DNA of 63,591 nt, the filler included, from Malassezia furfur (taxonomy: Eukaryota): NCBI GenBank assembly GCA_052055015.1. It is 20 parts of 20 records of this genome, joined end to end, with 100 filler letters (N's around TTAATTAATTAA, not from the genome) between each part and the next. Parts side by side here need not be neighbours in the genome. Positions count along the whole stretch, not along the records: positions 48,015 to 51,061 come from JBQJIT010000816.1; 19 more parts are not named here. The stretch is one strand, 5' to 3'. The notes beneath the pieces were generated by a model. That model saw only the letters and a program-made list of their open reading frames with translations. It was not told where the DNA came from and did no database searches. Positions 1,570 through 57,354 of the stretch are shown piece after piece; the stretch's first letter is position 1, and each line of letters opens with the position of its first letter. The translations under genes were made by a program, and so were the position numbers.

Positions 1570-1619
1570 GTAAGCGGGCGCCGTCGTCGTCGTCGTGCGA
1601 GCAGCACTAACACCAACAG
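1570..1619 (+). other. 50-nt 5'-UTR intron of RPL13
   Basis: GTAAGC...CACTAAC-ACCAACAG, ending 1 nt before the ATG at 1621. Confidence 0.75.
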
Positions 1620-14496: not shown

Positions 14497-14837
14497 ATGC
14501 GTCCAGGACGCACCGCGAAGAATGCGTCCGCCGTGTGCCTAGGTGTCAAATGCACCGATTCGAACACGGCAAATGACACCTACACTGGGCGCATAGGTCC
14601 CCACCTGAAAAAAGTTCCGGGCAGCGCCGCGGGGCTGGGTGCGGTTTCGGCCTCACCGAAGCGAGACAAAACGCGCCGCGCCCATCACGAGATCCAGCCA
14701 ATCTACGTGCGAATCTGCCACATAACACGTGGCCTAGCCCTGTTCGCCTGACGCCTGCATCGCCACGCGTTTGCCTGATTCGCCCGGGCCTCCTGGGCCT
14801 CCGCACTTGACCAGCGAAATGACGCAGGTTGCATAAT

Positions 14838-16787: not shown

Positions 16788-18840
16788 CTATGGGGCGCCG
16801 CTGCGCGCGGCGAGCTTCTTGAGGAGCTCCTCGGCGACGAGCGACAGGTCGGTGCCTGCGTCCATGACCTTTTGCAGGTACGCCTGCGCCAGCGCGAGGT
16901 CGCCGCGCGGCGCGGGCGCAGGCGCAGGCGGCACGCCTGCGCGCGCCGCGCGCTGCTCGGCGCGCGAGTGGAAGAGCTTGCCGTGCAGCTCGCCCATCTC
17001 GTAGCGCGCGGCCACCACGAACGAGAAGGCGTACCGTGCGACGAGCGCCGGGTCGAGCTGCGCGGCGTTCTTGTCGATGACCTGCGCAAGCAGGCCGTGG
17101 AAGAGGGTCGCGTGCACTGTGTCGCCCTCGCGCTCGTACAGGTCGACGATGCGCGCGATGGCGTCCACCGACTCGGCCTCGGTCAGGGGGCACGTGAGGT
17201 GCCGCTTGAAGCAGGCGATCGCGTCGGTGGTGCGTCCCAGGCGCTCGTAGCACACGCCGAGCGACGCCCACATGCGTGCGTCGTACGGGCGGATCGCGGC
17301 GCATTTCTGGTAGTAGTGGATCGCGTAGGACCATGCCTCGTTCAGCTCGTACACCTGGCCGAGGCCGTGCCACGGGCGGTAGTCCTGCGGGTTGATCTCG
17401 AGCGCGCGGCGGTACATTTCCGCGGCGGCGTGGCTGTTTTTCAGCTCGAGGTACTCGTGCCCGAGCAGGATCCACGCCGCGACGTACTCGCTGTCGAGGC
17501 GCAGCGCGCGCTTGAACGACTCGATCGCACGGAAGTGGTCGCTGCGCTGGTTGTAGTAGTTGCCGATCAGGCAGCACACCTCGGGGCGGTCCTTGCCGAG
17601 GCGCGCAAACTGCTGCACGAGCTGCGCGAGCGCCTCGGCGTGGTCGAGCACGTACAGAGTATTCGAGTACTCGCTCACGCCCTCGAGGCGGTACGGATCG
17701 CGCGCGAGCGCCTCCTGAAAGGTCTCGGCGGCCTCCTCGAGCTCCTGCAGCAGGTAGAGCGTCTGCGCACGGCACGTCAGCAAGTACGTCGAGCCGGGGA
17801 AGTGCGTGAGGAGCGCGTCGATCCGGTCGAGGTTCGCGGCGTCGGCCTGCGTCGCCTGGCGCGTCGCGTACTCGAGGAAGAAGGCGGACATGAACGAGTC
17901 GGGGAGCAAGTCGAGGATCTGCTCGCGCTCGTTGTTCGCGTTGTTCAGCGTGCGGCTCAGCTCCTGCCAGGCGCTCCAGTTGTACGGAAAGGCACGCACG
18001 CTCATCAGCAGGCAGTCCATCGCCTCGACGCGCTTGTGCAGCCGCGAAAACAACACACCCTTCAGGAACAGGAGGAAGGCGTCCGTCGGATCAACGAGGT
18101 GCGCGAGCAGCGGCACGAGCGACGGGTCCTGCGCGCCCTGGGCGTACGGCAGCGGCGCCAGTGCGCCCTCCTCGTCGAGCTCGCGCTGGAACACGAGGAA
18201 GCGGGCGTACAGCTGGAGGAAGCGCCCCTTGTCGGACAGCTGCGGCTCCTTCTCGAGGAGCCACGCACACCGGTCGTACTCGCGCTGGTCGAAGCACGAC
18301 TTCGCAAGCGCATACGTCTCGGCGTCTTCGCCGCCGTCCGGCGCGGGCGCAAACGGCGCGGGCGTCGCCGCAGGCGCGGGCGTCGCGGCGTCGAGGTGCA
18401 CATGCACGGGCGGCGCACGCTCGGGCGACGACATCGACGTGAGCGGCGCGGCGTCGTGCGCACGCGCGCCGCCCGGCACCGGCGACTCGTGCGTCGCGGT
18501 GTGCCAGGGCCATGCGGACCCGTCCGAGGCGCTGCGGCTCGTGCTGGCATGTTGGTCCCATGCGGGCGAGCCGAGGTTCAGGGCGGGCGTCGAGTGCGTC
18601 GGGAACCGCATGGGCTCAGCGCCCTTGGGCGTCGCGCGCGTGTCGGCTGCCCCCGGTCCGGGTCGGGGCAGCGCGTGGAGCAGCTCGAGGGCCCTGCGTG
18701 TGAGCGGGCGCGCAAACGTACCAGTGGGAGGCCGAGGTGAGCCCGCGGTCCACGAGCTGTGTCGCGGCGCCGCGCAGCGCCGCGCGTGCGGTGCTCGGCG
18801 CGAGGTCCGCGGCGGACTCGAGCGCCGCGCAGCCGCTCAT
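16788..18840 (-). CDS. CDC23: APC/C TPR subunit Cdc23/Apc8; 28-nt intron at 18694-18721
   Basis: Spliced N-terminus 'LRGAATQLVDRGLTSASHW|ALELL', 'LAKSCFDQREYDRCA', 'DPYRLE', 'RPEVCCLIGNYY', 'AWILLGHEYLELKNSHAA', 'DYRPWHGLGQVYE'. Confidence 0.94.
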
Positions 18841-18887
18841 CCTTCGACGCGTCGAAGAAGCCACGTGGCGTGTCGTTCGACGCGAGG
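18841..18887. promoter_or_regulatory. 47-bp bidirectional promoter between CDC23 and RDH54 with an MCB-containing palindrome and an E-box
   Basis: Perfect palindrome CTTCGACGCGTCGAAG at 18842-18857 (ACGCGT core) and CACGTG at 18862-18867. Confidence 0.6.
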
Positions 18888-19361
18888 ATGGCGTACGCAT
18901 CGGAGGCCGCGCACGCGAAGCTCCGCGCGCAGTTCCACACGCCGCTCAAGCGCAAGGCGGATGCGGATGCGGCGCCGGCGCGCGCTGCGCCGCTCGTCCC
19001 GCTCGCGCACGAGCCGAGCTTTTTGTGCCAGTGGCGCGCGCCGCAGATGCGCAAGCACAAGACGTGGCAGGGCGACGCGATCCTCGTGCTGCACACGAAC
19101 CGCACGACGTGCTCGCTGCGCTCCGTGCACGACGGCAAGATGCTGGTGACGAATGCCGCGTTCCGGCGGCAGGACGCGCGCGAGGGCGACGAGCTGTACG
19201 TCGGCGGCAAGGAGATTCTCATCGAGAAGGCGCTCGACGCGTCCGCGGCCGAGGACGCGTCCGCGGAGGACGCGCCGCCGCCCAGCAGCGCGCCGCCGCC
19301 TGTGCGCCGTGCACGCACGGGCGCGATCCCTGCGGCGCAGTTCTACGCGTCGCCTGCGAAG
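18888..19361 (+). CDS. RDH54: Rdh54/RAD54B-like translocase, N-terminal domain only, 3' truncated
   Basis: 'FLCQWRAPQMRKHKTWQGDAILV...GDELYVGGKEILIE' matches the RAD54B/Rdh54 N-terminal motif. Confidence 0.75.
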
Positions 19362-19461
19362 NNNNNNNNNNNNNNNNNNNNNNNNNNNNNNNNNNNNNNN
19401 NNNNNTTAATTAATTAANNNNNNNNNNNNNNNNNNNNNNNNNNNNNNNNNNNNNNNNNNNN

Positions 19462-21124
19462 ACCACCTGCGTCATCTGGCGGAGGTGGGCGTCGTCGGCG
19501 ACGTGCACGGCCGGCGCCGCACGTGCCGCGCGCCCGTTCTCCTTGTCGTGCGTGGGCTGCAGCGAGAGCTGCCCGAGCTTCTGCGAGAGCGCCGCGGCGC
19601 CGCCCGCGGGGGGCGCAGGCACCGGCGCCTTGACCAGCGGCTGGCGGCCGACCTTGAGCAGCGTCGAGATCGGGCTGCCGGGGTGGATCGCCTGCTGGAA
19701 CTCGCGGTCGATCCGGTCGCGGTTCTCCTCGACGGCCTCGAGCACGCGCAGCTCGTCGCGCGTCGACTTGGCGGGCACCTGCGGCGGCTCCTCCTCGACG
19801 ATCGACTGCCAGTCGGCGGCCTTCTTGAGCTGCTCAAAGTTGCGCAGCGACTCGGTGTGCGTCAGGGTGGGGATGTACGGCTGCTGGTACACGGCGTCGC
19901 TCGGGACGTGCATCGGCACGGTGCCCACGCGGAACCACGGGTGGTCCATGATCTCGGCAAGCGAGGGGCGCTCGGCTGGGGTCAGTGGAAGAGGCACGTA
20001 CATGGACGCTGCGACAGAATCTGGCGGATGAGCTGCTGCGCCTCGGGCGACAGGTTCGCCTCGGGCGGGATCTCGTACTCGTTGCGGCGGATGCGGTCGT
20101 AGATCTTCTGCACGTTGCTCGTCTGGAACGGCGGGCGGCCGACGAGCAGCGTGTACAGAATCACGCCGACGGACCACACGTCGACCTCGAACGAGTGGCC
20201 CTCGCCCTGGTCGTAGAGGATCTCGGGTGCGATGTAGTTCGGCGTGCCACACACCGTCTTCTTGCGCTCCTCGGGGTACTTGAGCAGCGCCGCAAGCCCA
20301 AAGTCGCCAATCTTGACCTGCATGTTTTTGTCGAGGAACACGTTGCCGAGCTTGAGGTCGCGGTGGATGATCGAGTTGTTGTGCATGTGCTGCACGCCCG
20401 CAAGGATCTGGATCATAAAGTAGCGCGCCTCGGACTCGAGGTAGCGCCCACGCCGCTTGACAATGTCGTTCATGTTGCCGTTGTGGCACAGCTCGAGCGC
20501 AAAGTAGACGTTCTCGGCGTCCTCAAACACGTCCTCAAACTGCACAATGTGGACGTGCTTCAGCGAGCGATGGATCATGATCTCCGCAAGAATCTTCTGC
20601 CGATTCTTCTTCGACTGCATGATGGCGCTCTTGGCAATCACCTTGAACGCCTTGTCCTGGCCGTGCCGGTCGGTGACGTGGAACACACGCGCAAAGCCGC
20701 CCTGGCCCAGCATCGCATGCCGCTCGTACTCGTTCCCCGCGGGGTCGACGATCGTGCGCGGCGGCGTGGGCAGCTGCGGCTTCTTGCTCGTGTGCGACAC
20801 CGTCTCCTTGGTCACGGGCGGCGCCGGCGCCTCGGTGGTGCGCTTCGGCGACGGCGGCTGCTGCGCGGCAGGCACAATGTTGCCGACGCCCGCGAGCGGG
20901 GCAAACTGGCGCCGCTGCCCGGTGCGCAGGTGCGCCTGGGCGGCATGCGCCGCCTCGGCATGCATCATATTCTCCGACACCTTGTAGGGGTCGGCGTCCT
21001 GCGAGGTATGGCGCTGAACGGGGACCGACTCTTGCGCTGAGATCGACTGCAGTACGGCGCGGCGTGGCGCAGAGGGCAGCGCCAACGACGGATCCAATCC
21101 GTACCGAGGGACGTCCGAGGACAT
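19462..21124 (-). CDS. CDC5: Polo-like kinase Cdc5, 3' truncated before the polo boxes; 26-nt intron at 19976-20001
   Basis: 'LGQGGFARVF', 'KILAEIMIHRSL', 'HRDLKLGNVFL', 'DFGLAA...ERKKTVCGTPNYIAPE', 'GHSFEVDVWS'. Spliced 'QRPS|ERPSL'. Confidence 0.93.
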
Positions 21125-21228
21125 CGCAATCCACACACACACCGAAGCGGAAGCAGCCGGCGTGTGTATTTCTCGCTGCACACAACCAACACTAAACTCT
21201 CGCCGCGTGCGCCGCGCGTGGCGCGTGG

Positions 21229-22566
21229 TCACGTGCTATGTACGGCGTGCCAGCGCGTGGCCCTGGTCGTCGCCAAGAAGACGTCGGCCTCCACCTCGCG
21301 CGCGCGCCAAGACGCGCGCTGCGTGGGGACGAGCCGCGTGACGAGGTAGCGCGCGCCGACCGCCAGCGCCGGCGGGTCCCACACGGTGAGCTGCACAGTG
21401 CGGGGCGACACACGGCGCGTCGGCCGCGCGTCGTGGAAGCGCACAATGCACAGCGACCGCACGACCCGCGCGGGGCACAGCGCATCGAGCGCCGCCGCAT
21501 ACGCCTCGCTCTCGGGCGCGGACAGCACGGCGTCGCGCAGGCGCGCACACCACAGCAGCTGCCGCTGCCGCTGCGGCGCGTCGGGCGCCCCGGCATCCGC
21601 GGCGAGGCGCGCAGCGGGGTCTTCACACTGCTCGAGCTCGGCGAGGTAGGCTTGCGTCGCTGGGTAAGGCGCGGCATACGTACCTTGGGCGTGGCTCGGC
21701 TCGAGCGCCTCGCACGCGAGCACACGCGCCTCGAGCCATGCCAGCACCGCCTGCACGCGCCGCGCGGCGGTGCGGAGCTGCGCCTCGGCGTCGTGCCGCG
21801 CAGTCTGCCACCGAGCGGCGCGCTCCGCCTCTTCCTCGGCGCTGTGCTCGGCGTGGGGGAAGACGGGCAGGCCGCGCACGTCGCGGTGGCCCTCTTGGTA
21901 GCCGGTCGGGTAGATGCGATGTAGCACCACGTCCATGGCGCCGACGATGCCGCCGTCGCTCGTGAGCCGCGACAAGCTCGACACGAACGGCGCGCGCTGG
22001 AAGCCGAGGCGCGCATCCCACGGCACCAGCGCCGTCGAGTTGGCCGCAAGCACGAGGTCGGACGTCGGCAGCGCATCGAGCGCCGGTGTGCCGTCGCCAA
22101 ACGCGTGCAGCTGTGCGGCACAGATGCCGAGCTTGTGGCCGCGCCGGATCTTGCCGGCGTCGACGGCGCGCTGCAGCGGCGCATCGAGCTCGGCACGGAT
22201 CAAATACCACCCGTCGGTGAGGTGCAGCACCGTCGACGGCCCCTCGTCGGGGTCGGTGTGGGCCAAGCGCTGCACCGCGTATACACACAACACCATGGCG
22301 CGGTCCGCGGGCGCGGTACGCTCCTGGATACGCTTGACGCAGCTGTGCGCACCGCGGTGCACCTCGCGCTCGTAGCGGTACCGCAGCGCGTTCAGCACGT
22401 GCTCCCAGCGCCACCACGACACGGGATCCGACGAGCTCGACACCGCATAGCCCGCGAGCTTCCACAGGATGAGCGCATAGTGGTGCTGCACCCATTTGCG
22501 CGTCGCGCGCCGCGCGCCGAGCGCGTGCAGCGCCGCGAGCGCCTCGTCGACGCCGTGCGTGCCAGA
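21229..22566 (-). CDS. BRH2: BRCA2 homologue Brh2, DNA-binding domain (helical + OB folds), 5' truncated
   Basis: 'WVQHHYALILWKLA', 'LRYRYEREV', 'MVLCV', 'LTDGWY', 'LAANST...WDARLGF', 'DGGIVGAMDVVLHRIYP'. Confidence 0.9.
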   Translation of the reverse strand, partial: SGTHGVDEALAALHALGARRATRKWVQHHYALILWKLAGYAVSSSSDPVSWWRWEHVLNALRYRYEREVHRGAHSCVKRIQERTAPADRAMVLCVYAVQRLAHTDPDEGPSTVLHLTDGWYLIRAELDAPLQRAVDAGKIRRGHKLGICAAQLHAFGDGTPALDALPTSDLVLAANSTALVPWDARLGFQRAPFVSSLSRLTSDGGIVGAMDVVLHRIYPTGYQEGHRDVRGLPVFPHAEHSAEEEAERAARWQTARHDAEAQLRTAARRVQAVLAWLEARVLACEALEPSHAQGTYAAPYPATQAYLAELEQCEDPAARLAADAGAPDAPQRQRQLLWCARLRDAVLSAPESEAYAAALDALCPARVVRSLCIVRFHDARPTRRVSPRTVQLTVWDPPALAVGARYLVTRLVPTQRASWRAREVEADVFLATTRATRWHAVHST

Positions 22567-22666: not shown

Positions 22667-23638
22667 TGGCGAGTGGACGGGCCGCGCTGGACTCGAACCC
22701 GTTTGACGACCCGAGCGTGCAAAGCGCCGTGCACGGCTCGCTCGATGATGACCTAGAGGCTTCTCCGTTTGACACGGACTCGCTGAACGCCAAGGGTGGC
22801 CTTGGCTACGCCGAAACGCTCGACGAGGACGAGGAGGAACTCTACCCCACGAGCACACACGGCACGGCGCCCGCACACGCCATGCGCGAAGACGATATTG
22901 CACGCCGCGAACGCGAGTTGGCGGAGCGCGAGCGCGAGCTTGACGCGCGGACCGAGCACATGCGCAAGTTTGGGCGCAACAATTGGCCGCCGTTCTATCC
23001 CCTCGTGTACCACGACATTGACGCCGAGATTCCGCCCGATGCACAGGAGACGATGCGGCACATTTACTATCTGTGGCTGCTGCTTACCGCCACATTAATA
23101 TGGAACGTGCCCACGATGATAGTGATGGCGCTTTTCAATGTGCCCAACGCGAACTTCATCGGCGCCATCATCTATCTCGTCTTCATCCCCCCCCTCAGTT
23201 TCACGCTGTGGTACCGCCCGGTGTACAACGGTTTGATGAAGGAGCACTCGCTGTTTTACTATGTGTATTTCTTGTTTGGCGGCTTCCACCTGCTCTTCTC
23301 CCTGTACGCTGTCGTTGGCTATGCGTCCACGGGCTGCGCCGGCCTGCTGAGCGTGATTTCCGCGTTCTACAACGGGAAGTGGGTCAGCGGAGCACTGGCC
23401 ATTGTATCAAGCCTCGGGTTCGTGGTGCAAGGCGCCGGCAACCTGTGGTACTACCGAATCGTACGTCGCTACCGCAACTCACCCAGATCTACCAGCACAA
23501 CCAAGAGAGTAGGTCGCAACACTTACCCCAGAGGGACACACCTTTGCGCAGGCCAAGGCCGAGCTTGCCTCGCACGGCGCACGCGCCTATTTGTACGTGT
23601 CATCGCTCACCGGTAGCTTGCGCGGCTCGCGGGTTTGA
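22667..23638 (+). CDS. Secretory carrier membrane protein (SCAMP); introns at 23461-23486 (26 nt), 23509-23531 (23) and 23593-23616 (24); A of the ATG clipped
   Basis: NPF motif, 'RERELAERERE', 'NNWPPFYPLVYHDIDAEIP', four TM segments, 'WYRPVYN'. Spliced C-terminus 'YYRI|IYQHNQEK|GHTFAQAKAELASHGARAYF|LRGSRV*'. Confidence 0.9.
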
Positions 23639-23720: not shown

Positions 23721-24750
23721 CTATGCGGCCTGCGCCGAGGGCGCCGCAGTGCTCGCGTACTGCGCCTGCTGATGGTGCGCCTGCTGCTGCGCCTGCTGCT
23801 TCGCACTGCTCTCCTTGAGCGCGAGGAGCTGCTTGGAGCGGAACGACTCGTAGAACGTGCTGCCCGTTGTTTCGATCAGGTCGTGCAGGTTGGTGCGCAG
23901 CATAAAGTCGCGCAGCTGCAAAAACTCGCAGTGCGACTTGTTTTCCACGTTGATCAGACCACTGCCGACCTGGCGCACACGCACCGGCCTGCCGTCCACC
24001 TCGACCGTCTTCTCTGCAGTGACCACCGCGAAAGGCAGAAGCGACTGCACCAGCGAGTTCAGCTCGCGGTCCTCCTCGTCGTGGTCTTCGTGGTCAAAGG
24101 GGTAGACGCGGATGCCGTTGGACTGCAGCGAGGCACGAATCCGCTTTTTGAACAGCTCGCGCTCGCCGAGCGTCAGCGCATCTGCCTTGGCGATGACAGG
24201 GATGACGTTGGCAATGTCGCCAAGCTTCTTGAGCACCTGAATGTCGATCGAGCGCAGCGAGTGACCGGACGGGTCGATGAAGAAGAGCACGGCGTGCACG
24301 CGCGTGTCGGGGATATTACGCTCACGCACCGCAGTCAGCTCCTTGCGCAAGTAGATGCTGTACTGGTCTTTGATGTATTTCACAATCGGCTCCCAGCAGT
24401 GCTCGTTGTTGATCAGGTCGCCGTAGCCGGGGGTGTCGATGAGGTTCAGCTTGAGCTTGACGCCATTCTCGACAATGGCTGCGTCAGCAAAAATACGTAC
24501 TGTGCGAAGAGGTCGTGATGCTCGTCGTCTGGCGCACCTCGTCCGACGGCTCCATACGGCCCTTGGACGAGAGCAGGTTCGACGAAAAGAGCGTGTTGAT
24601 GAGCGAGCTCTTGCCGAGACCCGACTGGCCCACGACCATCACATTGAACTGGAACCCGCGCCGGAGCAGCTTCGACTCGATTTGCTTCGTGAGCGTGTCG
24701 AAGCCGACATAGCCATGCAGGGGCGTAGGCACTGGCTCATTCACAGACAT
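23721..24750 (-). CDS. CDC10: Septin, Cdc10 group; 22-nt intron at 24479-24500
   Basis: 'YVGFDTL', P-loop 'GQSGLGKS', spliced 'SSHT|IVENGVKLKLNLIDTPGYGD', 'AKAD', 'YESFRSKQLLALKE'. No C-terminal coiled coil. Confidence 0.92.
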
Positions 24751-27623: not shown

Positions 27624-28153
27624 CTACGCAAGTCGTGCGCGTTTGGGCGACGACGCATCGTCGTCGCCGAGCGACGCGAGCACGTCGTCATCGACCTCGC
27701 TCGTGCCCGGCGTGCTGCGTACGCGCTTGGCGTGCCCGGCCGCCTCGTCGGACGCGTCGGTCTGCGCGGCCAGCGGCGCCGAAGCCGCCGGCGGCTCGTC
27801 GTCCTCGTCGTCCGAGTACGCGACGGCGCGGCGCGGCGCGCGTCCCTTGGGCGTGCGTACCTCGGCAGGCGCCGCCGCCGCGCGCTCGGTATGTATCTCC
27901 GACGCGGCGCGCGCGTGGATCTCGGCGATGGCGTCGAGCAGGAAACTGCGTGAGCGGTCCGCGACGTACTCCACTTCTTCCTGCAGCGCCTGCTGCATCT
28001 GCATCGCCTTGGTGGCGGCCGCCTCCATCTCGGTTTGGCGCTGCATCGTCAGTAGCACACACGTACCGCCGTCACCTTGTCGTACGCGAGGCGCGTCCGC
28101 GTAAAGTGCGCCTTGTAGTCGTGCGGACGCCCGGCGCTCGCACTCCTCGGCAT
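27624..28153 (-). CDS. Small coiled-coil protein, possibly INO80E/Iec3-like; introns at 28041-28066 (26 nt) and 27946-27969 (24)
   Basis: Spliced 'DYKAHFTRTRLAYDKVTA|RQTEMEAAATKAMQMQQALQEEVD|FLLDAIAE'. Basic NLS-like C-terminus 'PKRARLA'. Family call is tentative. Confidence 0.6.
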
Positions 28154-29094: not shown

Positions 29095-32000
29095 CCGGGG
29101 CGCTGCTTGGCCCGCCGGGGCGCAGCAGCTTGCCCGTGGTCACGGGCCGCACGACGCCCGGCTTCTTCCGGGCGGGCGGGCGCGAGACGCTGTTGGACGG
29201 CTCGCCCGAGGCGACCGACACGGTGGAGCTCTTGTACACGTCGCCGCGCACCACCGACTCGTCCTTCTTGAACGTGACGTGGGCCTTTTTGCGGCCCTTG
29301 CGCTGGTACTCGAGCTGGTTGGCAATGTTGACGTGCGTGTTGCCGCGCGTCAGCTGCAGGATACGCGCGACGAACTCCGTCTTGAAGTCGAGGTGGAGGA
29401 GGGGGTCCCCCTCGTCGTCGCCCGTGTTGAGGATGACCCAGTCGTCGCGCAAGCCGGAGAGACCGACGGTGCGGATGGACGAGAGTGCGATGCGCCGCTC
29501 GAGCAAGGTCTGTGGCACCTTGTTCACCAGCTGCGTCACCAGAATGTACACGCTGCGCTCGGTCATCAGCAAGAAGCGCGGGCTCGGCCGGCTCGAGCGG
29601 CCCAGGCGCGAGACGAGCAGCTGGGCCCGCGAGCTGAACGCCACCGGCTCGTTCCCCGCGAGGCCCGCGGCGGCGCGCAGCATGCGCCCCTCGGGCGCCG
29701 AGCCGTTCACGTCGAGGTAGTCGCCCATAAAGCGGCGCATGCTCACCAGACTGAAGCGGCGGCGCTCCTTGCGCCCCGCGAGCACCTGGTGGCCGTAGTC
29801 GCGCATCACGAGGAAGTCGTGGCCCTCGCGACTGCGGCGCCACGCGCGCTGGATGCGCCGCGCACACTCGTGCTTGTAGCGCATGTACGCACGGAAGGCG
29901 CGCTGGATGCGCATCGCCATATTGTGCCAGTAGCGGTCGCGCATCGTTTCGAGGGCAAAGAGCGTCTCGGGGTTTTTGATGAAGCCCTTGGTGGCGCCCA
30001 GCTGCCACTCGTCGCGGGCGATGCCCGTGTCGAGGAAGATCCGTTCGCACCCGCTGCGCGCGTCGCCCTGCCAGGTGTACTCACCCGCGTACGACGTCGC
30101 GGGCGACAGCAGGTAGAAGCGCTGCACAATCTTTTCAAACGTGTTGCGGTACGCAAAGCCCGCGCGGCGCACGCGGATGTTTTCCTTCAGGCCAAGGTAC
30201 TTGATCTGGTGCAGGATCGCCTGCGCGTCGTACTCGCTCGGGCTCTTGTTCTGGTTGGGCTTGATGGTGCGGATGTACGACGGCTGCGCGCGCATCAAGT
30301 TCTGCACGAGCAGGTTGGCGCTCGCCTTGATGCGGTCGCCCGCGCTCGGCGGGCGCTTCTTGCTGTCCGGATCGGGGCGATCGGGGAAGAGCGCGACGAG
30401 GAAGCCGTTCGCGGAGGAGTCGACGAGGTTCAGGATGTCCTTCTGCAGCGCATCCTTGTTTTTGTCAGTCATGCCCTGCACGTTGTACATCACGTCTCCG
30501 GCGTAGTGGCGCACGAGGAACTTGTTGCCACGTGCCTCAAAGTGCGGGTTGCTCGCGAGCATCGACGTGCGCTGCACAAACGAGTTGTCCGCCGCCGCAG
30601 GGTCGGCGTGCGCGGTGGCCATCGCGTCGTTCAGCGCGCTGAAGATGCCCGGCGGCCGGCGCTCCTCGATCAGGTCACACACAATCTTGTTGTTGAAGTA
30701 CTTGATCGGCGTCCACTGGATCTGCTCCTGCGCATACTCCTCCTGCTCCTTCTTCAGCGTGAGCTCGATAAAGATTTGCTGCAGCTTTTCGTTGACGTAG
30801 TTGATGCACAGCTGCTCGAACGAGTTGTTCTCAAAGATCTCGAACCCGTAAATGTCCAGCACACCGATCACGTTCGCCGCCGTACTGCGGAGGTTCAGCG
30901 AGGTGTTGAGGCGCTGCACAATCCACTCAAACAGATTGTTGTAGATCGCCTTGGCGAGCGCATCGCGCACCGCCGCCGCCTGCGTGCAGTTCAGCGGCAC
31001 CTCGTACACCGACCCGCGCCGCCCGCCGCGCTGCGTCTCCATGATGCGCTGCGTCAGCGCACGCACCACCGCGCCGCTGTCGACCTCGAGCAGGTACGCC
31101 ACAAACGCGGGGGTGTCGGCGTTGGCAATCTCGGCATCGCCCTGCGCGTTCTCAACAAACTGCACGTTGCCGAGCCACAGGATCGCAGCGAGCATGCGGA
31201 AGATGCTCGTCTGCTCCGCGTCGCTCAGCCCAATGATGCGCATCGCCTCGACCGCCCCAGCGTAGTCGGCGTGGTCATCGATGCCAGGCACATCCAGGCA
31301 CCCGCTGTTGGCCGTGTACGCATAGGCCTCGGGGCCCTGCAGGCCAAACATCTCGCGCTGCTGCGGCGTGGCAGCCTTGGTGAGCTGGTAAAAGATGTGG
31401 AAGTTGCGCTCGTTGCGGATCTGCCCCACGACACGCCCCTTTTCGAGGAGGTAGTTGGTGATGTTGGCGCCGATCGGCGTGCCGTTCGCGTCAAACATGA
31501 TCTCGAGGTACTTTCCGTGGCGCGACGAGTTGTTGTTGCGCAGCGTCTTGGCGCACCCGAAGCTCTCGAGCAGCGGGTTGGTCGCCAGCACCATGTCCTT
31601 GATGTCATGGATTCCGCCCGATCCGCCGCCATCGCCGCTGACCGCCGCGATGTACTGCATGATCCGCTTCGCGGCCTCCGTCTTGCCCGCGCCCGACTCG
31701 CCCGAGATGATCACGCACTGGTTCTCCTTGTACGCAAGCATGTTGTAGTACGCGCCCTCCGCGATCGCGTACACGTGCGGCGGCATCTCGAGGCGGTTCT
31801 TGCCGCGGTACGACGCGAGCACCTCGTCCGTGTAGATGCCCAAATCGCGGAACGGATTCACCGAGATAAGCACATTGCCGATATATGTCTGGCGTCAGCA
31901 TGGGCCACACGTACATAAATCTCGCCGTTCGCGAAGCGCTTCTGCAGGTTGCTGTTGATCGCCTCGTCGGTGATCTGTGTAAGAAGCGTCATATCGGACA

Positions 32001-35949: not shown

Positions 35950-38389
35950 ATGCCCCGCACGCCGTCGGCGGACGACCCCGCGCCGCACGCGCCGTGGCAC
36001 GCGCCGTGTGCGCTGTTCGTTGCGACGGGCGCGCTGCAGCGGCCCACCGCACACACGCAGGCGCTGCAGACCGTGCCGGAGGACGCCGACGAGGCGCGCA
36101 CCGCAGCGCCCGCCGCACCGCGCAGCGCCGTCGAGCAGTGCCGCGCGCACGCGCGCGCCGAGGGCTACGACACGATCGCGATCGAGCTCACGAACGCGCG
36201 GTGGCGCGAGCGCTGGGAACGCCTGTGCCTCGTGCCGGACACGGAGCCGGGCGGCGCCGCGCTGCCGCGCAGCAGCAGCCGCGCGACGATGGCCTCGGCG
36301 ACGGCCGTGCCGCGCAGTGCGTCGCACACGCGCCTCGAGGCCGAGGCGTGGCGCGCGCACCCGCACTTTGCGCGCGCAGAGCTGCACCTCGTGCGCGCCG
36401 ACGAGGCGCGCGACGCCGTCGTCGTGCTGAGCCAGTGGCTCGAGCTCGACGCGCTCGACGAGGGCGTGCGTCTCGACGCGGAGCTTGCGCTGCAGCAGGA
36501 GGTCGCGTACGCGTCGTACCTCGGCGCGTCGCACGTCGTGCTGCCGCCACCGAGCAGCGACCCGGCGCGGCGTGTGCACCTCGCGGACTATGCGCGCGCC
36601 GTCCACAACGTGCTGACGGGCGTCGCAGGCGGCGCGGCACCGGTGCTGCCGACGATGCGCGTGTCGGTGCGCCTGCCGGTGAGCTCGCCGCACATCCTTG
36701 CATCGATGCTCGTGCGCCAGGCGACGCGCTCGGCGCGCGGCACGCCGGCGATGCCGGCCGCCGCCTACCTGCGCACCAACGACAACTGGGCGTGGGAGAC
36801 GTGGGAGGCGGTCCAGACGCTGTGCCACTACCACCCGCAGCTGCACGTCGCGCTCGACCTGTCGATGCCGCTCCCGCCCACGACCGCCATGGTGCGCTGG
36901 CGCGCCGAGCCCGTCGCGCTCGTGTGGCTGCCCTCGACGTCGTTCCTCGCGAACGCACGCGGCTACCCCGTGCTGTCCAAGTCGGCGCAGCGCCTCGTGC
37001 ACGAGCTGCTGCCGCGCGCGCCGACCATCGTGCTCAGCGACACACACGCACCGCCCGCACAGCACACGCGCGGCGGGCCGGGCGCCTACCTGCAGTACCT
37101 GCACCACCTGCTCCGCACGGCGCCGCCGCCGCCCAAGATCGCCGCGTTCGCGCACGGCTACGCGGACCAGCTGCAGGCGCCGCTGCAGCCCATGTCAGTC
37201 GACCTCGGCGCCGCGACGTACGACGTGTTCGAGGCGGACCCGGTCAAGTACGACGCGTACGAGCACGCGCTCTTCCAGGCGCTCACGCACCACGCCACGC
37301 CGCAGCGCACCGCGCGCGTCTGGGTCGTGGGCGCGGGGCAGGGCGCGCTCGTCACGCGCACGCTCGCGGCCGCCGAGCGCGCGTCGCGCGTCGTGCACAT
37401 CACCGCGCTCGAGAAGAACGGCGGCGCATGCATCGCGCTGCAGGACCGCGCGCTGCACGAGTGGGGCACGGAGCGCGTCGCCGTCGTCCAGGGCGACATG
37501 CGCACGCTGCCGGTGCCCGAGCGCGTCGAGGACCGCGCAGACATCGTGGTGAGCGAGCTGCTCGGCAGCTTTGCGGACAACGAGCTGGCACCCGAGTGCC
37601 TCGACGGCGCGATGCGCTTCCTGAAACGTACGTGTGCGACTGACCCAGCGGACGGCATCTCGATCCCGCGCGCCTACGTGCCGTACCTCGCGCCGGTCGC
37701 CGCCGCCAAGCTGCATGCGACCATCGGGCACGCCCAGAGCGGCGCAGCGCCCGCAGCGGGCACGGGCATGGGCACAAGCGTCGCACACACGACGTTCGAT
37801 GCGCCGTACGTCGTGCTCCTGCAGTCCGCCAACGTGCTCTCCGCGGACGACGGCGAGCACCTGGCCGTGCAGCCGTGCTGGCGCTTCGAGCACGGGCCGA
37901 TGGACACGAGCGGGCTGGTGTGCACCGCGGCCGGCCTGCCCGAGACGAACCAGCACAACGTGCGCACCGCCGCGCACACGTTTGCCATCCCGCACGCGGG
38001 CATCTGCCACGGCCTCGCGGGCTTCTTCGAGGCACACCTGTACGGCGACACGGTGCTCTCCATCCACCCGGACCCCGCGCGCGCGACGCCGGACATGATC
38101 AGCTGGTTCCCGCTGTTCTTCCCGTTCCGCACGCCGCTCTACCTGCCGGACCACAGCGAACTCGAGGTGCACATGTGGCGCCTCACCGACCAGCGCCGCG
38201 TGTGGTACGAGTGGAGCGCCGAGGCGTTCCTCGTGCTCGACCCCCGGCCCACGCCGCCCGCCGCCGCGCCCGCCGTAACCACGCCGCCCGCCGTGCCCGA
38301 CACGCACGGCGGCGCGTTCAGCAACGCGATGCACACGCCGAGCATGCCGTCCACGTCGACGTTCCTCGCGCCGCCCGACGCGCCCGAGC
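35950..38389 (+). CDS. HSL7: Protein arginine methyltransferase PRMT5/Skb1/Hsl7, 3' truncated; in-frame 21-nt intron at 37628-37648
   Basis: 'ALQQEVAYASYLG', 'YADQLQAPLQPM', 'TYDVFEADPVKY', 'VVGAGQGALV', 'DIVVSELLGSFADNELAPECLDG', spliced 'RFLKP|DGISIP', 'MISWFPLFFP', 'VWYEW'. Confidence 0.94.
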
Positions 38390-45005: not shown

Positions 45006-45714
45006 TTAGGCGGCCTGTGCGGGGCGCAGCGAATTGTAGTGCTGGGTCAGCGATGCGTGCGCAACCTACCTCGCCCAGGCCAAACTGCTTCAGATGGTAC
45101 GAGATGAGCAGCGGCGCCTTGTGCTCGCCAAACGCCTCGTCTTCGATCTTGACGATCGGCATGCCGGGCTGCACGACGTGGATCGGCGTGTGAAAGACGC
45201 GCGCGAGCGCGAGGATCTCGGGCTGGCCGCCCCACGCCGACGTCGACTCCATCGCGTCGCAGTACTGCAGAAACTTGGCCTCGCGCGAGTCGCTTCCGTC
45301 CGCCGCGACACCCGCGTGCGTCTCGTCGAGGTCCGAGATGAACGGAAGAAAGTCGGCGCTGTGCTGCCGCATGTACTGCGCCGCGGCACGGCGCAGCATG
45401 CGGTAGTCGTACGGCTCCGGCGCAGGGTACCGCACGTTGAGCTGGTCGGCAATCGCCGCATACAGGCTGCGTCAGCGGGCGCACACGCACCAGTGCCCAT
45501 CGGGCGCGATCTCGTGCAGCTCGACGTGGAGCGACGCCAGCGCGGCGTCCAGCGCACGCTTCTCGTCCTCCGCGGCATGTTCGTCGGCGTCGCGCACCTC
45601 CTGCTCGGCCTCGGCCCGCTTCTGAGCCGCGGCCGCGTCGCGGCGCGCAAGGCGCGCTTTCTGGCGGCTCATCTTCTTGGGCGGCGCATTGGGCGCGTCG
45701 GTCGACCGGTACAT
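45006..45714 (-). CDS. OTU2: OTU deubiquitinase Otu2/OTUD6; introns at 45467-45490 (24 nt) and 45042-45069 (28)
   Basis: Spliced Cys box 'IAPDGHC|LYAAIADQL', 'AWGGQPEILAL', His box 'FGLGE|HYNSLRP'. Confidence 0.9.
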
Positions 45715-45827
45715 GCTGCACGCCTGCCAAGCCACGCGCGCTCGGCCGCAGCGCCTGTATTATATGTGGAGGCGGCGCGCGCCGCGCGCCGGGTCGAGTT
45801 CGCGTGCCTGCCTGCCTGCCTGCCAGC

Positions 45828-47286
45828 CTACTTGCATCGCGCCTGCACGATGGCGCTACCGTGCTCCTCGTACTCCTGCTTGCTGATCCACAGCTGGTGG
45901 AAGGTGCCGAGACTCGCGAGGATGCTCCCACCGAGCCATGTCGCGTGCCGCCGCTCGGTGTAGTTGCCGGGCGAGTGGATCTTGATCCGCTGGCTCGGCG
46001 CCGCGACACTCAGCTCGTAGCTCAGCCGGTCGATGAAGCCGGGCACAAATGTCCCGCCGCCGACGCACACAATGTTGCTAAACATGGCCGCGCGTGCATC
46101 GACGTCCACGGCCTTGGCCGCCTCGAGGATCAGCTCGGTGAGGCCCACATAGCCGCTCTTGCGCGCAGGCAGCACGCCGGGGCTCGACGCGTACAGGCTC
46201 GGGGTGAGCACCGCCTCGGGCGCCTTGAAGCGCAGCGGGCCGTATGCATCGTTGTACCCGTCGGGGAACTCGTACATCTTGGTCGGGCGTGCCGCGGCGT
46301 GCGCAGCGTCCCAGGGCGCCTCGAGCGTCTGGCACATGGCCTCCTTGAAGTCGTCGAGCAGCCGCATCGTGTGGTATGCACGGAACGACGGCGCGCTGTG
46401 CTGCAGCCGGTCCTCGCGCAGCGTCGCCTGCGGCGGAATCCCAGGGTCCACGGGCTTCTTCGACTTGACCAGGTACTGCGGCACGAGGCTGTCGCTCAGC
46501 CACCCATGCAGGTTCTTGTCCTCGCTCTGCTCGTGCGTCAGGCCCCACAGCACCGCGCGCGACACGGCGTCGCCGCCGTTCGGCTGCGTGTGGATGCCCT
46601 TGCGCAGCACGAAGCCGTCCACGACGGGGATCGCCGAGACGTGCGACGCACCGACGTCGACGACGAGCGACGTCGGCCGCCCGCTCGCAAACGAGCTCAG
46701 CACCGTGCGGTTCGCGAGGTAGAACGCGGGCACACCCAGGCCCTCGAACGCGACCTCGGCCATCTTTTCGCGCACCGCCGTCGGATTCGTCGGCGGCTCG
46801 GTGAGCAGCAGCGGATTCTCGCGCGCATCGACGGACAACACGTCCATCGCGTGCTGCGCAAGCGCCTCAAACGCCGACGCGTCCTGCACTGCCAGTCAGC
46901 CGCGCCCAGCGGTACGCACCTATGCCGTCGGCGTCAAACGGCGTGTCAATCTCCAGATTCGGGCGCCAGTACGACACGCCCGCGTCGCCCACAAACCGCT
47001 TGCGCCCACGCGCTACATCCAGCGACACGCCGCGCGGCAGCTTCGGCTTCGCGGGCTCCTCGCCGGCCTCGGCCATCGACACGTCGCCGTCGTCCGCCGC
47101 ACCGTTCGCGCTCGGCGCCGAAGCGCCGGCCTGTGCGCGGTCCGCGTCGCTCAGCGGGAGCCAGCCGTAGTGCGACGGGAACAGCGCCCGCGGCTGGTCC
47201 TCCCCGGCCCAGCCGCCACGGAAGAGCGATGTGCCGGGGTCCAGCACAATCGCGTTGATCTCATCGCCGCCGTACACGCCAGGCAT
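45828..47286 (-). CDS. ARP4: Nuclear actin-related protein Arp4 (BAF53); 31-nt intron at 46889-46919
   Basis: 'VYGGDEINAIVLDPG', 'GWAGEDQP', spliced 'DGIV|QD', 'LLLTEP', 'YEFPDGYN', 'WLGGSILASLGTFHQLWISKQEYEEHG'. Confidence 0.94.
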
Positions 47287-47356
47287 CGTAGCGCAGGTAG
47301 CCGTGCCGACAAAGTCACGTGGCCGACGTGCGCGCCCGCGGCTCGCCTGCTGCACC

Positions 47357-47914
47357 ATGCTCCCGGCGCGCCCGCACGACGCCGGCGTGCGCGCAAGCCC
47401 GACGCGCACGCCGCATCTGCGCGCGCATGCGCCGCGCGAGAATGCGTCGCCATTCAAGCGCGAGCTCGGCAAGGCGCCGTCCGCGCCCTCGACCTCGCAC
47501 GCCGCACGCAGCGCATTCTCGGACAAGACCAACGCCTCGCCGTCGCCCGCGCGCGGCACCGCTCCGTCGCCGTCGAAGCGCAGCGGTGCAAGCCCGATCA
47601 AGGGCGCGCCCGTACCGTCCACGGCCATGAAGTCGGCGTTTGCGCGCCACAACTCGTTCGTCACGCCCGCGGCCAACATCGGCCGCGCGGGGCAGATCAA
47701 GGCGCGCCTCGGCGAGCTCCACGACGCGGCGCGCACGCCGGCCGCACAGCCAGCGCACACCGAGCCCACACAGGACGTGTCGGAGGACGAACTGTACCCG
47801 GAGATCGAGTCGATGCCTACATCGCACGCCGCGCCCTACGTCTTCCCCGCGCAGCTCGACGGACTGCCGCGCGCGGCCGACGCCGCACGCCTCCTCGCCC
47901 ACGCGCCGCTCCCG
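47357..47914 (+). CDS. Disordered protein with a D-box-like motif and a securin-like 'YPEIE' motif (candidate securin), 3' truncated
   Basis: 'PRENA' (KEN-like), 'RSAFSDKTN' (D-box-like), many S/T-P sites, acidic 'SEDELYPEIESMP'. Confidence 0.55.
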
Positions 47915-48014
47915 NNNNNNNNNNNNNNNNNNNNNNNNNNNNNNNNNNNNNNNNNNNNTTAATTAATTAANNNNNNNNNNNNNNNNNNNNNNNNNNNNNN
48001 NNNNNNNNNNNNNN

Positions 48015-48799
48015 CGGGGTGGGCGTGATGTAGAGTTTCGCGAGGGTCCTGACGCAGGGGCTGATGAGGGGGCAGGTACTGAGGCGTTGGAAGGTGCCGC
48101 AGGTGCCGTGGATTTGGAAGGTGCCGCAGGTGCCGAGGCTTCGGAAGGCGCGGAAGGTTCCGTAGGTGCAGAAGGTGCAGGAGGTTCCGACGGTTCCGAT
48201 GGTGCCGACGATGCCGACGGTGCCGAGTTGCCCGGCGCACCGCCTGACGCACCCTGCCGCGGCCCTTCCTCTGTACGTCTTCCCTCGTCCTCCTTCCCCG
48301 GCGCCTGCCGTACATATGCGAGCGAGCGCATCTGCTGCCGGAGCGAGTCCAAATCCACATCTGTATACGCAAAGTCGACCAGCTTCCCATCGTCCTGCAT
48401 AAGCCCTACACGCACCTCGAGAAGCTCGTCGAGCCGGATGGCCACTTTGGTGCGCCGAACACGCTCGGCGTGTGGATCGAGGATCCATTCGCCGTGCTCG
48501 AGCAGCGCGTGTCCACACCGCCCGCACACCGGCCATGCGGCTGTGAGAGCATGTACTGAGGGCGGCTGTGACGTGCCTTGGACCACGTCGAGGTCTGCGG
48601 GCGGCACGAGGCCAGGGCATGCACATGGCGCGGCGCCCGGCACGGTGACGGGCGGCATGCGTGCGTACGGCGATGCGTCGTCCGGCGCGAGGTGCCAACC
48701 GTGTGCACACGGTGCGTGCCGCGCGACCTTGAGGAGCGCCGATGGCTCTGTGCACGAGCGAACGTCGGCGATTCCCCCCGCGTACACAAACGGCGGCAT
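48015..48799 (-). CDS. N-terminus of a probable Gcn5 acetyltransferase (PCAF_N-like Cys/His domain), 3' truncated; in-frame 21-nt intron at 48395-48415
   Basis: 'LKVARHAPC...CACPGL...CGRCGHALLEH...RRTKVAIRLDELLE|DDGKLVDF...SLRQQM'. HAT and bromodomain are not in the contig. Confidence 0.6.
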
Positions 48800-48863
48800 G
48801 TCCGGGCGGAGGTACGCGTGTGGAGGCGCGAAGATTCGCGCGCAACTCCGCTCTCGTAAGGTC

Positions 48864-49932
48864 ATGTGGGCGCTCGTGCTGTGTGGTGTCGCGACGTGCA
48901 TTGTGAGCATGTGGATGCTAGGGAAGCGCAAGGTATGGGACCCGCGCGGCAAGGTACGTACCGTGCACTGATGCAGCGTGTGCTCGTCACGGGCGGGTCG
49001 CAAGGTCTGGGCCTGGCGCTTGCGCAGCTGCTGGCGTCGCGCGGCGCGCATGTGGTGATCTGCAGCCGCACCGAAGGCAAGCTGCAGGCGGCGCTACGGG
49101 AAGTCGAGGCTGCGCGTGTGGATGCGTCGCAGGAGCTGCAGTACGTCGCCGCGGACGTGTCGACGTTTGCCGGCGCGCAGCAGGCGCTGGCCGCGTGCGG
49201 TGCGGTGCCGGATACCGTCTTTTGCTGTGCGGGCGGCGCGAAGCCGGGCTATTTTGTCGAGCAGGTCGAGGCGGACTTTGAGGCGGCGGTGCGCACGGAC
49301 TACTTTACGGCGCTGTCGACGGCGCATGTACGTTGCACGACTGACGCAGGCGAGTGCCAAAGCGATGCGGGCGCACCACGTCGCTGGGCGTATTGTGCTG
49401 GTGAGCTCGGTGGTGGGCATGATGGGCTTGGTGGGCTATGCGCAGTATGCGCCGATGAAGTTTGCGATTCGGGGTACGTGTGGTGCTGACGGCGCAGGCC
49501 TTGCCGAGACGCTGCGTTCCGAGTTCCAGCTGTATGGACTGCAGGTGCACTGCTACTGCCCCGCGACGATCCTGTCGCCCGGGTTTGACGAGGAGCAAAA
49601 AACCAAGCCGCAGGTGACCAAGGACATTGAGGAGGGCGACGAGCAAAAGACGCCTGCGCAGTGTGCGGTGCACCTGCTGCGGGGGGTTGAGCGCGGCCGG
49701 TTTTTGATTACCGATGGGCTGGTCGGCTCGCTGCTGCGTGTCACGACGAGCGGGAGTGCACCTGGGCACGGCGTGTTGGTGGATACGCTCCTGGCGGTGC
49801 CGGCGCGGGTATGTGTGGGATCTGATGCAGGTATTGTTGCTCGGCTGGCGGCGGTTTATTGCCGACCGGATGGTGGTCAAGGCCGGGGGTGCCAAGGGTG
49901 CAGTGGGTGCCGCCGCGGGCGTCGCAAAGTAG
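48864..49932 (+). CDS. TSC10: 3-ketodihydrosphingosine reductase Tsc10/KDSR; introns at 48954-48976 (23 nt), 49328-49349 (22), 49474-49497 (24) and 49809-49830 (22)
   Basis: Spliced 'WDPRGK|RVLVTGGSQGLG...LSTAH|ASAKAM...YAPMKFAIRG|LAETLRSE...PATILSPGFDEEQKTKP...VPAR|VLLLGWRR'. N-terminal TM segment, SDR YxxxK. Confidence 0.9.
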
Positions 49933-54362: not shown

Positions 54363-55439
54363 CCGCGCACGCTGAGCGGCGCCGTGGCGCATGACCCTGC
54401 GCCGTGGCCGTCGGCGGCACCGCGCGCAAAAAGCAGCCAGTCGCGCCCGCGCACGGGCGGCATCATGTCGTTCAACGACCTGCGTGGGCACGAGTCGCCC
54501 GACGACGAGCGCGACGACGACCGTGATCCCGTGAACCTGTTTACCGGCGGCGAGCGCAGCGGTCTGAGCGTCGAGAATCCCGACGCGCGCCGCGGCCAGG
54601 ACGACGAGAACAGCATCGTGCGTGATATTCTGTCCAAGGCCGCGTCGGCAGCGCAGGGCTCGTCGCGTGCGCGTGAACTTGACCTGCAAGGCTCATCTTT
54701 CTCTCCGCGTGTGCAGGCGTTCAGCGGTGCGGGCCGCTCGATTGGCGGCGCGACGGTGGAGCCGGAGCGGCCGGCCGCAGGGATGCCGGGCGCCTTGGGC
54801 GCGGGCGACGAAGAGGACGAAGAGGACGAGGAGCCGGCAGTGCGCCACCTGACGTTCTGGCAGGATGGCTTCTCCATCGAGGATGGCCCACTGATGCGCT
54901 ACGATGACCCCGCGAACCGCGAGACGCTCGAGGCGATCAATTCCGGGCGTGTGCCGCTGTCGCTACTGAACGTGCGTTTTGGGCAGCCTGTCGAGCTGCT
55001 GGTTGCGCGGCGTACGAACGAGAAGTACGTGCCGCCGCCGCCGCCGCCGATGCAGCCGTTTGGCGGGTCGGGCAACCGGCTCGGTGCGCCTGCCCCCCCG
55101 CGTCCGGCGGCGGCACCGGCGGCGACGAGCAGCGCGCCTACGTCGGCGCCGCGCGATGTGCCTGCTGTGGACGAGGCAGCCCCTGTGACGCAGATCCAGG
55201 TGCGCCTGCCCGACGGCCAGCGGCTGATTGCCAAGCTGAACCACTCGCATACGGTGGGCGATCTGCGACGCTACATCCAAGCGTATGTACACTATGACTT
55301 ATCCAGGCACCGCCCCGAGCTTGCCGAACAGGCCTACACGCTGCAGACCTCCTTCCCCCCCCGCCCCCTCACGGACGAGACGCAGTCGGTCGCCGACGCG
55401 CAGCTCCTCCACTCGGTGGTCATGGTGAAGTTCACGTGA
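54363..55439 (+). CDS. SHP1: Cdc48 cofactor Shp1/Ubx1 (p47; SEP + UBX), 5' truncated; probable in-frame 24-nt intron at 55283-55306
   Basis: '[15 protein letters not shown]', SEP '[21 protein letters not shown]', 'FGGSGNRLG', UBX 'IQVRLPDG...TSFPPR'. Confidence 0.92.
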
Positions 55440-55743
55440 AGGTCTAGGTGGAGGTTGAACCAAGAGATACCCACGTGATGTATACAGCGCGGCCGTAGTG
55501 GATTGGCTGACCGGCGGCAGGGCTTGCCAGCGCATATCGCACCCGACCTGGATTCGTCCAATTATCACCGAAATCGCCCGAGCCGCATGCACAGTCGCCC
55601 GGCGCGCAGCGTGTGCGCGGCACGGCGGCCAATACTCGGGCCATGCACGGCGATTTCGGCAGGGACCTTTTCCGAAGCACCGGTCGGGTTAAAACAGGTG
55701 CAATCTTCGACAATTTTTCTTACCCTCACCCCTTCTTGATCCA
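55440..55743 (+). promoter_or_regulatory. AAC promoter region with an E-box and three CCAAT boxes
   Basis: CACGTG 55472-55477; ATTGG 55502-55506; CCAAT 55558-55562 and 55629-55633; pyrimidine-rich tract at about 55713-55740. Confidence 0.5.
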
Positions 55744-55781
55744 GTAGGTTGCCCGCGAAGACTTGCCATTCTAACCACCAG
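55744..55781 (+). other. 38-nt 5'-UTR intron of AAC
   Basis: GTAGGT...TTCTAAC-CACCAG, ending 2 nt before the ATG at 55784. Confidence 0.72.
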
Positions 55782-56849: not shown

Positions 56850-57354
56850 TCAACAACATCCGCCTGCGGTGGTGCGACTGCCCGCGCCGCCGCTCGTGCG
56901 CTCCTGCACGTTGACCAGCTCGTTGCGCGCCTCGGCGCCCGCGCGTGTCGCCGGCGGCTTGACCTGGTCGAGCGGGATGTGTTTCGCTGGGTGAGGGGCA
57001 AAGACGTACCAATCTCGGTGAACACTTCGAGCACATGCTCGCCCGTCTTGGCGCTCGTCTCGAAAAAGAGCAGCTGGTTCTCGTGGGCATACGCCTCGGC
57101 TTCCGCGTATGTCACCTCGCGCTGGGCCGGCGCCGGCGCCTCGTCGTCCTCGGCGTCGGTGTCGGTGTCGGCGTCCGCGGCCGGCGTTACGAGATCGATC
57201 TTGTTGCCCACGAGTGCGATCACAATGTTGGGGCTTGCCTGGCGCTGCAGCTCCTTGACCCATAGCTTGGCCTTCCCGAACGAGGTCTGTGTGAGGCGCG
57301 TGCGCACGTACCGCCTTGGTCACGTCGTAGACGACGGCGCTGGCCTGTGCATTG
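56850..57354 (-). CDS. Rab5-family GTPase (Vps21/Ypt5x), 5' truncated; introns at 57287-57311 (25 nt) and 56987-57009 (23)
   Basis: '[40 protein letters not shown]', 'FFETSAKTG', 'FTEIA|KHIP', C-terminal 'GGCC' prenylation motif. Confidence 0.92.

Follow-up and report, generated by a model that had tools for sequence, protein, structure and literature searches.

Ultra-short U2-type introns in Malassezia furfur and a proposed lower limit of 21 nt

We propose that the ultra-short introns of the skin yeast Malassezia furfur are ordinary U2-type introns, old in the genus, which have been shrunk by deletion to a physical floor of 21 nt, and we assign this reading a probability of roughly 0.85. The grammar of the introns, the floor, the restoration of reading frames and the presence of U2 and U6 sequences able to pair in the canonical way can be established from DNA alone. 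Short introns have already been published for the genus, and the TSC10 gene analysed below is already modelled correctly; what is new here, as far as the literature searched is concerned, is the sharp wall at 21 nt and the 16 + 5 layout of the minimal intron.

Results

TSC10 and its four introns

The window is a stretch of 63,591 nt that joins 20 separate contigs of approximately 3.1 kb with N spacers between them, and is not one stretch of a chromosome. In each of its 19 spacers, 12 bases stand between two runs of 44 N, and as the spacers carry stops, ORF ends at these sites are artefacts. The M. furfur assembly comprises 13.68 Mb in 1856 contigs. Many of its stretches occur twice, the copies being 84-95% identical, which suggests that the genome is hybrid.

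TSC10 (3-dehydrosphinganine reductase, an SDR) is located on contig C816 (window 47915-51105); the name is taken from the source labels of its homologues, of which M. furfur GLX27_004505 is the best named one. A previous sequence-only reading had placed four introns of 23, 22, 24 and 22 nt in this gene and stated that their removal yields a single SDR frame, and both statements hold (Table 1). All four introns have GT...AG ends with an extended donor consensus. In the unspliced sequence, no frame that starts from the ATG at 48864 stays intact, as each meets a stop or a shift, and the ATG's own frame ends in intron 1. Removal of the four segments, 91 nt in total, opens a frame of 325 aa to the TAG at 49930-49932, whose product matches the Pfam adh_short SDR family (E 4e-34) and is identical in 325/325 residues to the public model of GLX27_004505 (P0002). 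All four introns are therefore already contained in public annotation, and their boundaries are confirmed, at the level of sequence, against an independent gene model, itself of unstated evidence. Retention of intron 3 would insert eight residues, which neither P0002 nor the named homologues possess. Searches of the assembly at the DNA and the protein level yielded no further copy of TSC10, whereas many other genes of the window have one.

Mis-annotation of such genes, as had been predicted, is seen in relatives: M. brasiliensis MBRA1_003874 and M. obtusa MOBT1_003389 have 10 and 7 additional residues, respectively, exactly at the position of TSC10 intron 1. Protein P0001 has additional residues at introns 1-3. 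Public Malassezia protein models appear to read through in-frame introns of 21, 24 and 30 nt.

Table 1. TSC10 and the intron candidates kept in the window (positions along the window; lengths in nt in brackets)
Feature	Span	Strand	Parts	Remarks
50-nt intron	1570..1619	+		motif and frame scoring
32-nt intron	2693..2724	-		motif and frame scoring
Six introns	14076..16085	-	14076-14097 (22), 14847-14895 (49), 14947-14981 (35), 15122-15153 (32), 15960-15994 (35), 16060-16085 (26)	spliced frame outscores unspliced; second copy (L016) keeps intron ends, lengths 22, 47, 38, 26, 32, 25
Two introns, one motif-only candidate	18694..21683	-	18694-18721 (28), 19976-20001 (26); motif only: 21660-21683 (24)	
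Three introns	23461..23616	+	23461-23486 (26), 23509-23531 (23), 23593-23616 (24)	CTTAC branch in 23509-23531; 23593-23616 has 23 nt in second copy
22-nt intron	24479..24500	-		23 nt in second copy; spliced score 14.3, unspliced -8.6
Two introns	27946..28066	-	27946-27969 (24), 28041-28066 (26)	28041-28066 has 21 nt in second copy
26-nt intron	31889..31914	-		frame scoring, copy comparison
21-nt intron, minimal form	37628..37648	+		branch A at 16, 5-nt tail; in frame, no stop
Three introns, one motif-only candidate	45042..48415	-	45042-45069 (28), 45467-45490 (24), 46889-46919 (31); motif only: 48395-48415 (21)	
TSC10	48864..49932	+		3-dehydrosphinganine reductase, SDR; five exons, 325 aa
TSC10 exons		+	48864-48953, 48977-49327, 49350-49473, 49498-49808, 49831-49932	
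TSC10 intron 1	48954..48976	+	(23)	phase 0, branch A at 18, 5-nt tail
TSC10 intron 2	49328..49349	+	(22)	phase 0, branch A at 17, 5-nt tail
TSC10 intron 3	49474..49497	+	(24)	in frame, no stop, branch A at 16, 8-nt tail
TSC10 intron 4	49809..49830	+	(22)	phase 0, branch A at 17, 5-nt tail
One motif-only candidate, one intron	55283..55781	+	motif only: 55283-55306 (24); 55744-55781 (38)	
Two introns	56987..57311	-	56987-57009 (23), 57287-57311 (25)	

Introns in the remainder of the window

A scan of the window for the intron motif gave 23 raw matches of 21-26 nt, compared with 3.2 in 100 dinucleotide shuffles, the raw set including a nested duplicate and false positives. The final list is based on frame scoring and a relaxed-branch scan and holds 31 candidates with a median of 25 nt (21x2, 22x4, 23x3, 24x6, 25, 26x5, 28x2, 31, 32x2, 35x2, 38, 49, 50), three of which are supported by the motif alone. 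The earlier count of 30 introns with a median of 25-26 nt agrees with this list of lengths, apart from one further 24-mer. Frame support for the 21-nt intron at 37628-37648 is slight because its length is a multiple of three. The intron at 28041-28066 differs from its second copy by a 5-nt deletion, which lands on the floor. Six motif matches were excluded because they are coding or antisense (4629-4649, 16104-16128, 24725-24746, 31049-31066, 37183-37221 and 54840-54863); among these, the 18-nt candidate at 31049-31066 has the same sequence in both gene copies and scores better unspliced.

Comparison of gene copies and related loci

We queried 240 candidates for a second copy among the sampled DNA and obtained 36 unique pairs. 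Of these pairs, 35 have preserved GT..AG and all 36 have preserved G+5, and the spacers diverge by 29% as compared to 9% in the flanks. The two copies differ in intron length in 12/36 pairs, nine times by a non-multiple of three, whereas a gap in the 25-nt flanks occurs in only 2/36. Apart from the coding 18-mer, a length below 21 nt is found in no pair.

All four TSC10 intron positions are shared between M. furfur and two related metagenome loci, L105 and L109, with lengths of 25/24/29/24 nt and 29/32/32/40 nt for introns 1-4, respectively; the orthologous introns are shorter in M. furfur (22-24 vs 24-40 nt). L105 carries a probable extra 24-nt intron in TSC10 at 5130. The TSC10 genes of L100 and L103 give unbroken alignments with the protein, and from these two alignments all four introns appear to have been lost in the L100-L104 lineage. 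Introner-like mobile introns were also considered and rejected, as the spacers have no consensus and the four TSC10 positions are common to L105 and L109. Judged from these comparisons, the introns are old in the genus and have been shrunk by deletion, rather than being recent insertions.

The same data bear on the idea that what look like introns are errors of the assembly, or frameshifts in genes that have decayed, and that the motifs arise by chance in GC-rich DNA. The assembly is fragmented, and six motif matches in the window did turn out to be coding or antisense. However, conserved ends and free spacers in 36 copy pairs, intron positions shared with loci of other species, a public model that gives the same protein and the excess of the strict 21-nt motif over its control described below all speak against this idea, which we regard as having almost no chance of being correct.

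Genome-wide census and the floor at 21 nt

In the whole genome, the broad intron motif has 5538 matches, compared with 497 for the reversed control. The strict motif at exactly 21 nt has 684 matches and its control one; at 15-20 nt combined, there are 17 matches and 14 in the control. Ten of these 17 lie inside introns of 21-24 nt that have an upstream donor, three look coding by score on one of the two strands, two are non-coding (L093, L098) and two form a conserved 17-nt pair (L084, L090). This pair (C2:48843-48859 and C63:14898-14914, respectively) is a perfect donor-branch-acceptor motif kept in both gene copies, which is located 3' of a pyrimidine run and directly 5' of an ATG that opens a signal-peptide-like sequence. 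The motif lies in a probable 5' UTR and could be either a genuine intron shorter than the floor or the terminal part of a longer one.

In a sample of 412,573 bases (L038-L057, L068-L083 and the window), the strict class has no member at 18-20 nt, followed by 24, 33, 10, 11, 8 and 5 members at 21-26 nt. Frame restoration was assessed for matches that are not a multiple of three and whose flanks a self-trained codon model could frame confidently. The spliced frame is the intact one in 51/55 of such matches at 21-26 nt, the unspliced frame fitting instead in the other four, in 10/15 at 27-35 nt, in 7/14 at 36-60 nt and in 1/30 at 61-120 nt (Fisher p 3e-17 for 21-26 nt against 61-120 nt). By these sequence tests the short introns are confirmed as real and genome-wide in M. 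furfur, and the mode of 21-26 nt that had been noted in the window is borne out by the motif census. The census is defined by motifs and misses introns with weak signals or other geometries; the true median can therefore not be obtained from it, and its motif-limited median of 24 nt is not comparable to annotation medians.

Introns whose length is divisible by three are not depleted in this small sample (the length classes hold 27, 30 and 23 of 80 introns), and no in-frame stop is present in 19 of these 27, so that retention would silently add 7-8 residues. An NMD-type signature was not seen in the sample, as the retained segment carries a stop in 8/27 introns of this class and in 13/53 of the others. 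The lack of depletion and of in-frame stops would fit introns that are spliced poorly and often retained, with many transcripts keeping them, as in microsporidia, for whose short introns a median splicing efficiency of approximately 25% is reported (PMC13644364). On the other hand, low efficiency would compound in TSC10, because this gene has three frame-breaking introns and a single copy was found in the assembly. In addition, 5271 (99%) of 5350 curated M. sympodialis introns are RNA-seq-supported according to PMC5389616, although this shows occurrence and not efficiency. We consider frequent retention to be quite improbable.

Intron grammar and geometry

The minimal 21-nt unit has a donor of 6 nt, places the branch A at position 16, ends in a tail of 5 nt and lacks a pyrimidine tract. 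Its grammar can be written as a donor GTAYGT (+1 to +6), a free spacer, a branch (R)CTVAY and the five bases YNYAG. Donors are GTACGT, GTATGT, GTAGGT and alike, the branch motif is degenerate (CTGAC, CTCAC, CTGAT, CTCAT, CTAAC), and a purine stands four bases ahead of the branch A in 101/132 cases, which is what U2 pairing would favour. Of 189 strong-donor matches of 21-45 nt, 138 have 26 nt or less and 114 have a 5-nt tail, with most others having 6-8 nt. A fixed distance between branch and AG, as in Yarrowia or Trichomonas, is thus present, yet the tail is looser than a strict anchor.

Based on their donor and acceptor ends, a branch that could pair with U2 and the restoration of frames, we classify the segments as U2-type spliceosomal introns. 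The grammar proposed in the sequence-only reading, with a branch fused to the acceptor and no pyrimidine tract, is supported. U12-type (minor) introns have an RTATCCTT donor and a TCCTTAAC branch; the donors seen here, GTACGT, GTATGT and GTAGGT, do not agree with this type, the scan being built for U2-type donors and blind to minor introns elsewhere. IRE1-type and tRNA-type non-spliceosomal introns have hairpin-defined cut sites and occur in single special genes, and such an origin is implausible because there are thousands of GT-AG copies.

In a free-tail scan of the sample, the 28 strong-donor 21-mers are uniform, with the A at position 16 and a tail of 5 nt; branch A positions 14 and 15 are nearly empty (0 and 1), whereas positions 16 and 17 hold 38 and 41. 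Among the 189 strong-donor matches, the first branch motif lies at position 16 or later in 179, and four of the other 10 have a second branch motif at 16 or later, which leaves six with only an earlier one. Owing to the uniform 21-mers and the 179/189 matches, the floor is best read as the sum of a 15-nt span between G+1 and the branch A and the shortest tail. Alternatively, the introns could be real and the floor set by total length or the size of the lariat ring, or be an effect of the search patterns, instead of a donor-to-branch ruler. As the tail is set to 5 nt in the strict genome patterns, length and branch position are inseparable there, and the six matches with only an earlier motif are exceptions to the ruler. 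However, a limit on total length would permit a short span combined with a long tail, and the free-tail scan finds positions 14 and 15 nearly empty. The same strict patterns also allow 15-20 nt, yet yield chance levels at these lengths. We judge this alternative unlikely and prefer the 15-nt span.

Splicing machinery

U2 (one match) and U6 (two matches) were found above Rfam cut-offs in the assembly, and both the branch-pairing GUAGUA of U2 and the ACAGAGA of U6 are intact and canonical. A U2AF65-like gene is present at a contig edge, with 215.8 bits against a cut-off of 310.3. For U1 snRNA, there was no RF00003 match at E<=1 among the 41 of 173 candidates scored, and of 142 sites whose 5' end resembles that of U1, the 44 compared gave no match either; a conserved pair, L121/L137, was rejected as U1 since it resembles the donor of a 25-nt intron instead. 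No RED_N match was obtained in the genome for RED, in a search without a positive control, which makes this a weak negative, as is that for U1. A co-evolved U6 with a G facing C+4 was likewise rejected because ACAGAGA is unchanged. The survey of U1, U2AF and snRNAs that had been called for came out conventional for U2, U6 and U2AF65 and without a match for U1 and RED, and the statement that such short introns imply an adapted spliceosome is not demonstrated by the parts found.

A remodelled early spliceosome, in which U1 is strongly divergent or absent and the bridging factors of the B complex are lost, might permit the 15-nt span. The missing matches for U1 and RED would agree with this, as would the commonest donor, GTACGT (123/189), with its C at +4. 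Yet the components that were found are conventional, the U1 search was partial and the RED search lacked a control, and U2 was found only once and U6 twice in an assembly of 1856 contigs, in which a gene can simply be missing from the data. We hold such a remodelling responsible only with considerable reluctance and rank it slightly behind frequent retention.

Discussion

Holding donor and branch site at once poses a problem in an intron of 20-25 nt, as the human B complex is reported to need approximately 50 nt across this span (PMC6692369). For M. furfur, we propose that, along one short strand, U6 would hold positions +4 to +6 of the donor and U2 the branch motif. The acceptor would be the first AG, which follows the branch motif after two bases, so that a pyrimidine tract would not be needed, and deletions would be tolerated until the donor-to-branch span reaches 15 nt. 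The parallel in human cells is the Smu1/RED-dependent short introns, for which a minimum donor-to-branch distance likewise limits splicing (PMC6692369), the inferred span of 15 nt in M. furfur, where RED_N gave only the weak negative described above, being about a third of the human minimum. It is this contrast with the human value that points to an altered spliceosome. Given the requirement of the human B complex, the Malassezia spliceosome would have to shorten the extended U6/5'SS and U2/branch helices or to change the order of assembly, and it probably does so through changes in proteins and not in the pairing sequences of U2 and U6. A more far-reaching combination, namely a hard floor of 21 nt due to the 15-nt span, the shortest genome-wide mode in Dikarya, unchanged U2/U6 pairing and an early spliceosome remodelled by a divergent or missing U1 and the lack of Smu1/RED, we regard as rather doubtful, if somewhat less so than a floor set by total length. 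If true, it would provide a culturable fungus in which a short-span spliceosome can be dissected against a long-intron relative.

M. furfur shares short introns with other members of its genus. The curated M. sympodialis introns have a mean of 30 bp (PMC5389616 Table 2), and Figure S8 of the same paper, a cumulative intron length distribution, may already show a lower edge; for M. restricta, a mean of 37.2 and a median of 30 bp are given (PMC9241646 Table 1), the annotation having used a minimum intron of 15-20 (PMC6473144). As far as their available text goes, these reports of length give means and medians, whereas the present analysis gives a floor and the branch geometry. A review mentions only 'very short introns' for Malassezia in its available part (PMC7426719), and the available part of PMC3560662 contains nothing on intron length. 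An older fungal table lists 3244 introns with a total of 211,822 bp for M. sympodialis, a mean of approximately 65 bp (PMC8476143 supplement); since this row stems from a pre-RNA-seq annotation, the older tables are unfit to rank Dikarya. M. globosa is included by fitted parameters only in the supplement of PMC6157073, and Malassezia is absent from PMC11649378. Measured against curated annotations, the novelty suggested at the outset is thus reduced by the mean of 30 bp in M. sympodialis, the median of 30 bp in M. restricta and the four annotated TSC10 introns, and it persists for the floor, which is not reported in the literature searched. Neither an intron floor nor a branch geometry for Malassezia was found there, and M. 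furfur genome papers may tabulate the length distribution.

Outside the genus, introns of this size class are known from ciliates (Paramecium approximately 25 nt, Stentor 15-16 nt), microsporidia, dicyemids and myxozoans (median 22 bp) (PMC13644364, PMC5014332). According to the text available, these are, like those of M. furfur, GT-AG introns in which the pyrimidine tract is missing or very short. The same four groups are the exceptions listed in the recent literature, and Malassezia is absent from the text of PMC13644364. Like M. furfur, myxozoans are described as keeping a canonical U2, and also U2AF, to which the U2AF65-like gene of M. furfur corresponds; their branch site is represented by weakly conserved A residues, whereas the branch motif of M. 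furfur is readable and the 16 + 5 geometry legible from the DNA (PMC13644364).

A fixed spacing between branch and AG has been reported for Yarrowia lipolytica, Trichomonas vaginalis and Giardia (PMC2483917). Y. lipolytica resembles M. furfur in having no pyrimidine tract and 2 nt between the branch motif and AG, but its introns are long and its branch motif strict, while M. furfur has a degenerate motif and is minimal on the 5' side also; the row for Ustilago maydis in the same source reads 95 and 126.88, presumably median and mean (PMC2483917). The type B introns of Trichomonas (23-25 nt) have the same length and a branch fused to the acceptor (PMC12316389). There are 24 of them, as opposed to approximately 5000 motif matches above control in M. 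furfur and hundreds at 21 nt. A 23-nt Trichomonas intron is called among the shortest known in this paper, the available part of which does not name Malassezia (PMC12316389).

A sharp floor at 21 nt would make M. furfur a useful test case for minimal intron size. Although Paramecium is an existing tractable system for short introns, which limits this value, M. furfur adds a fungus with a readable branch motif, in which the two diverged gene copies represent a natural mutational scan and for which gene-deletion tools are reported (PMC5654937).

Other observations in the window

A 58-base inverted repeat is located near a contig start at approximately 29040-29300 of the window (C810:1-257), to which C840 also matches, and its 55-base end is common to C288 and C71. 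The region 3' of TSC10 (49950-50300) consists of low-complexity, repeat-like non-coding DNA with recurring short GCCT/CCTG-rich units.
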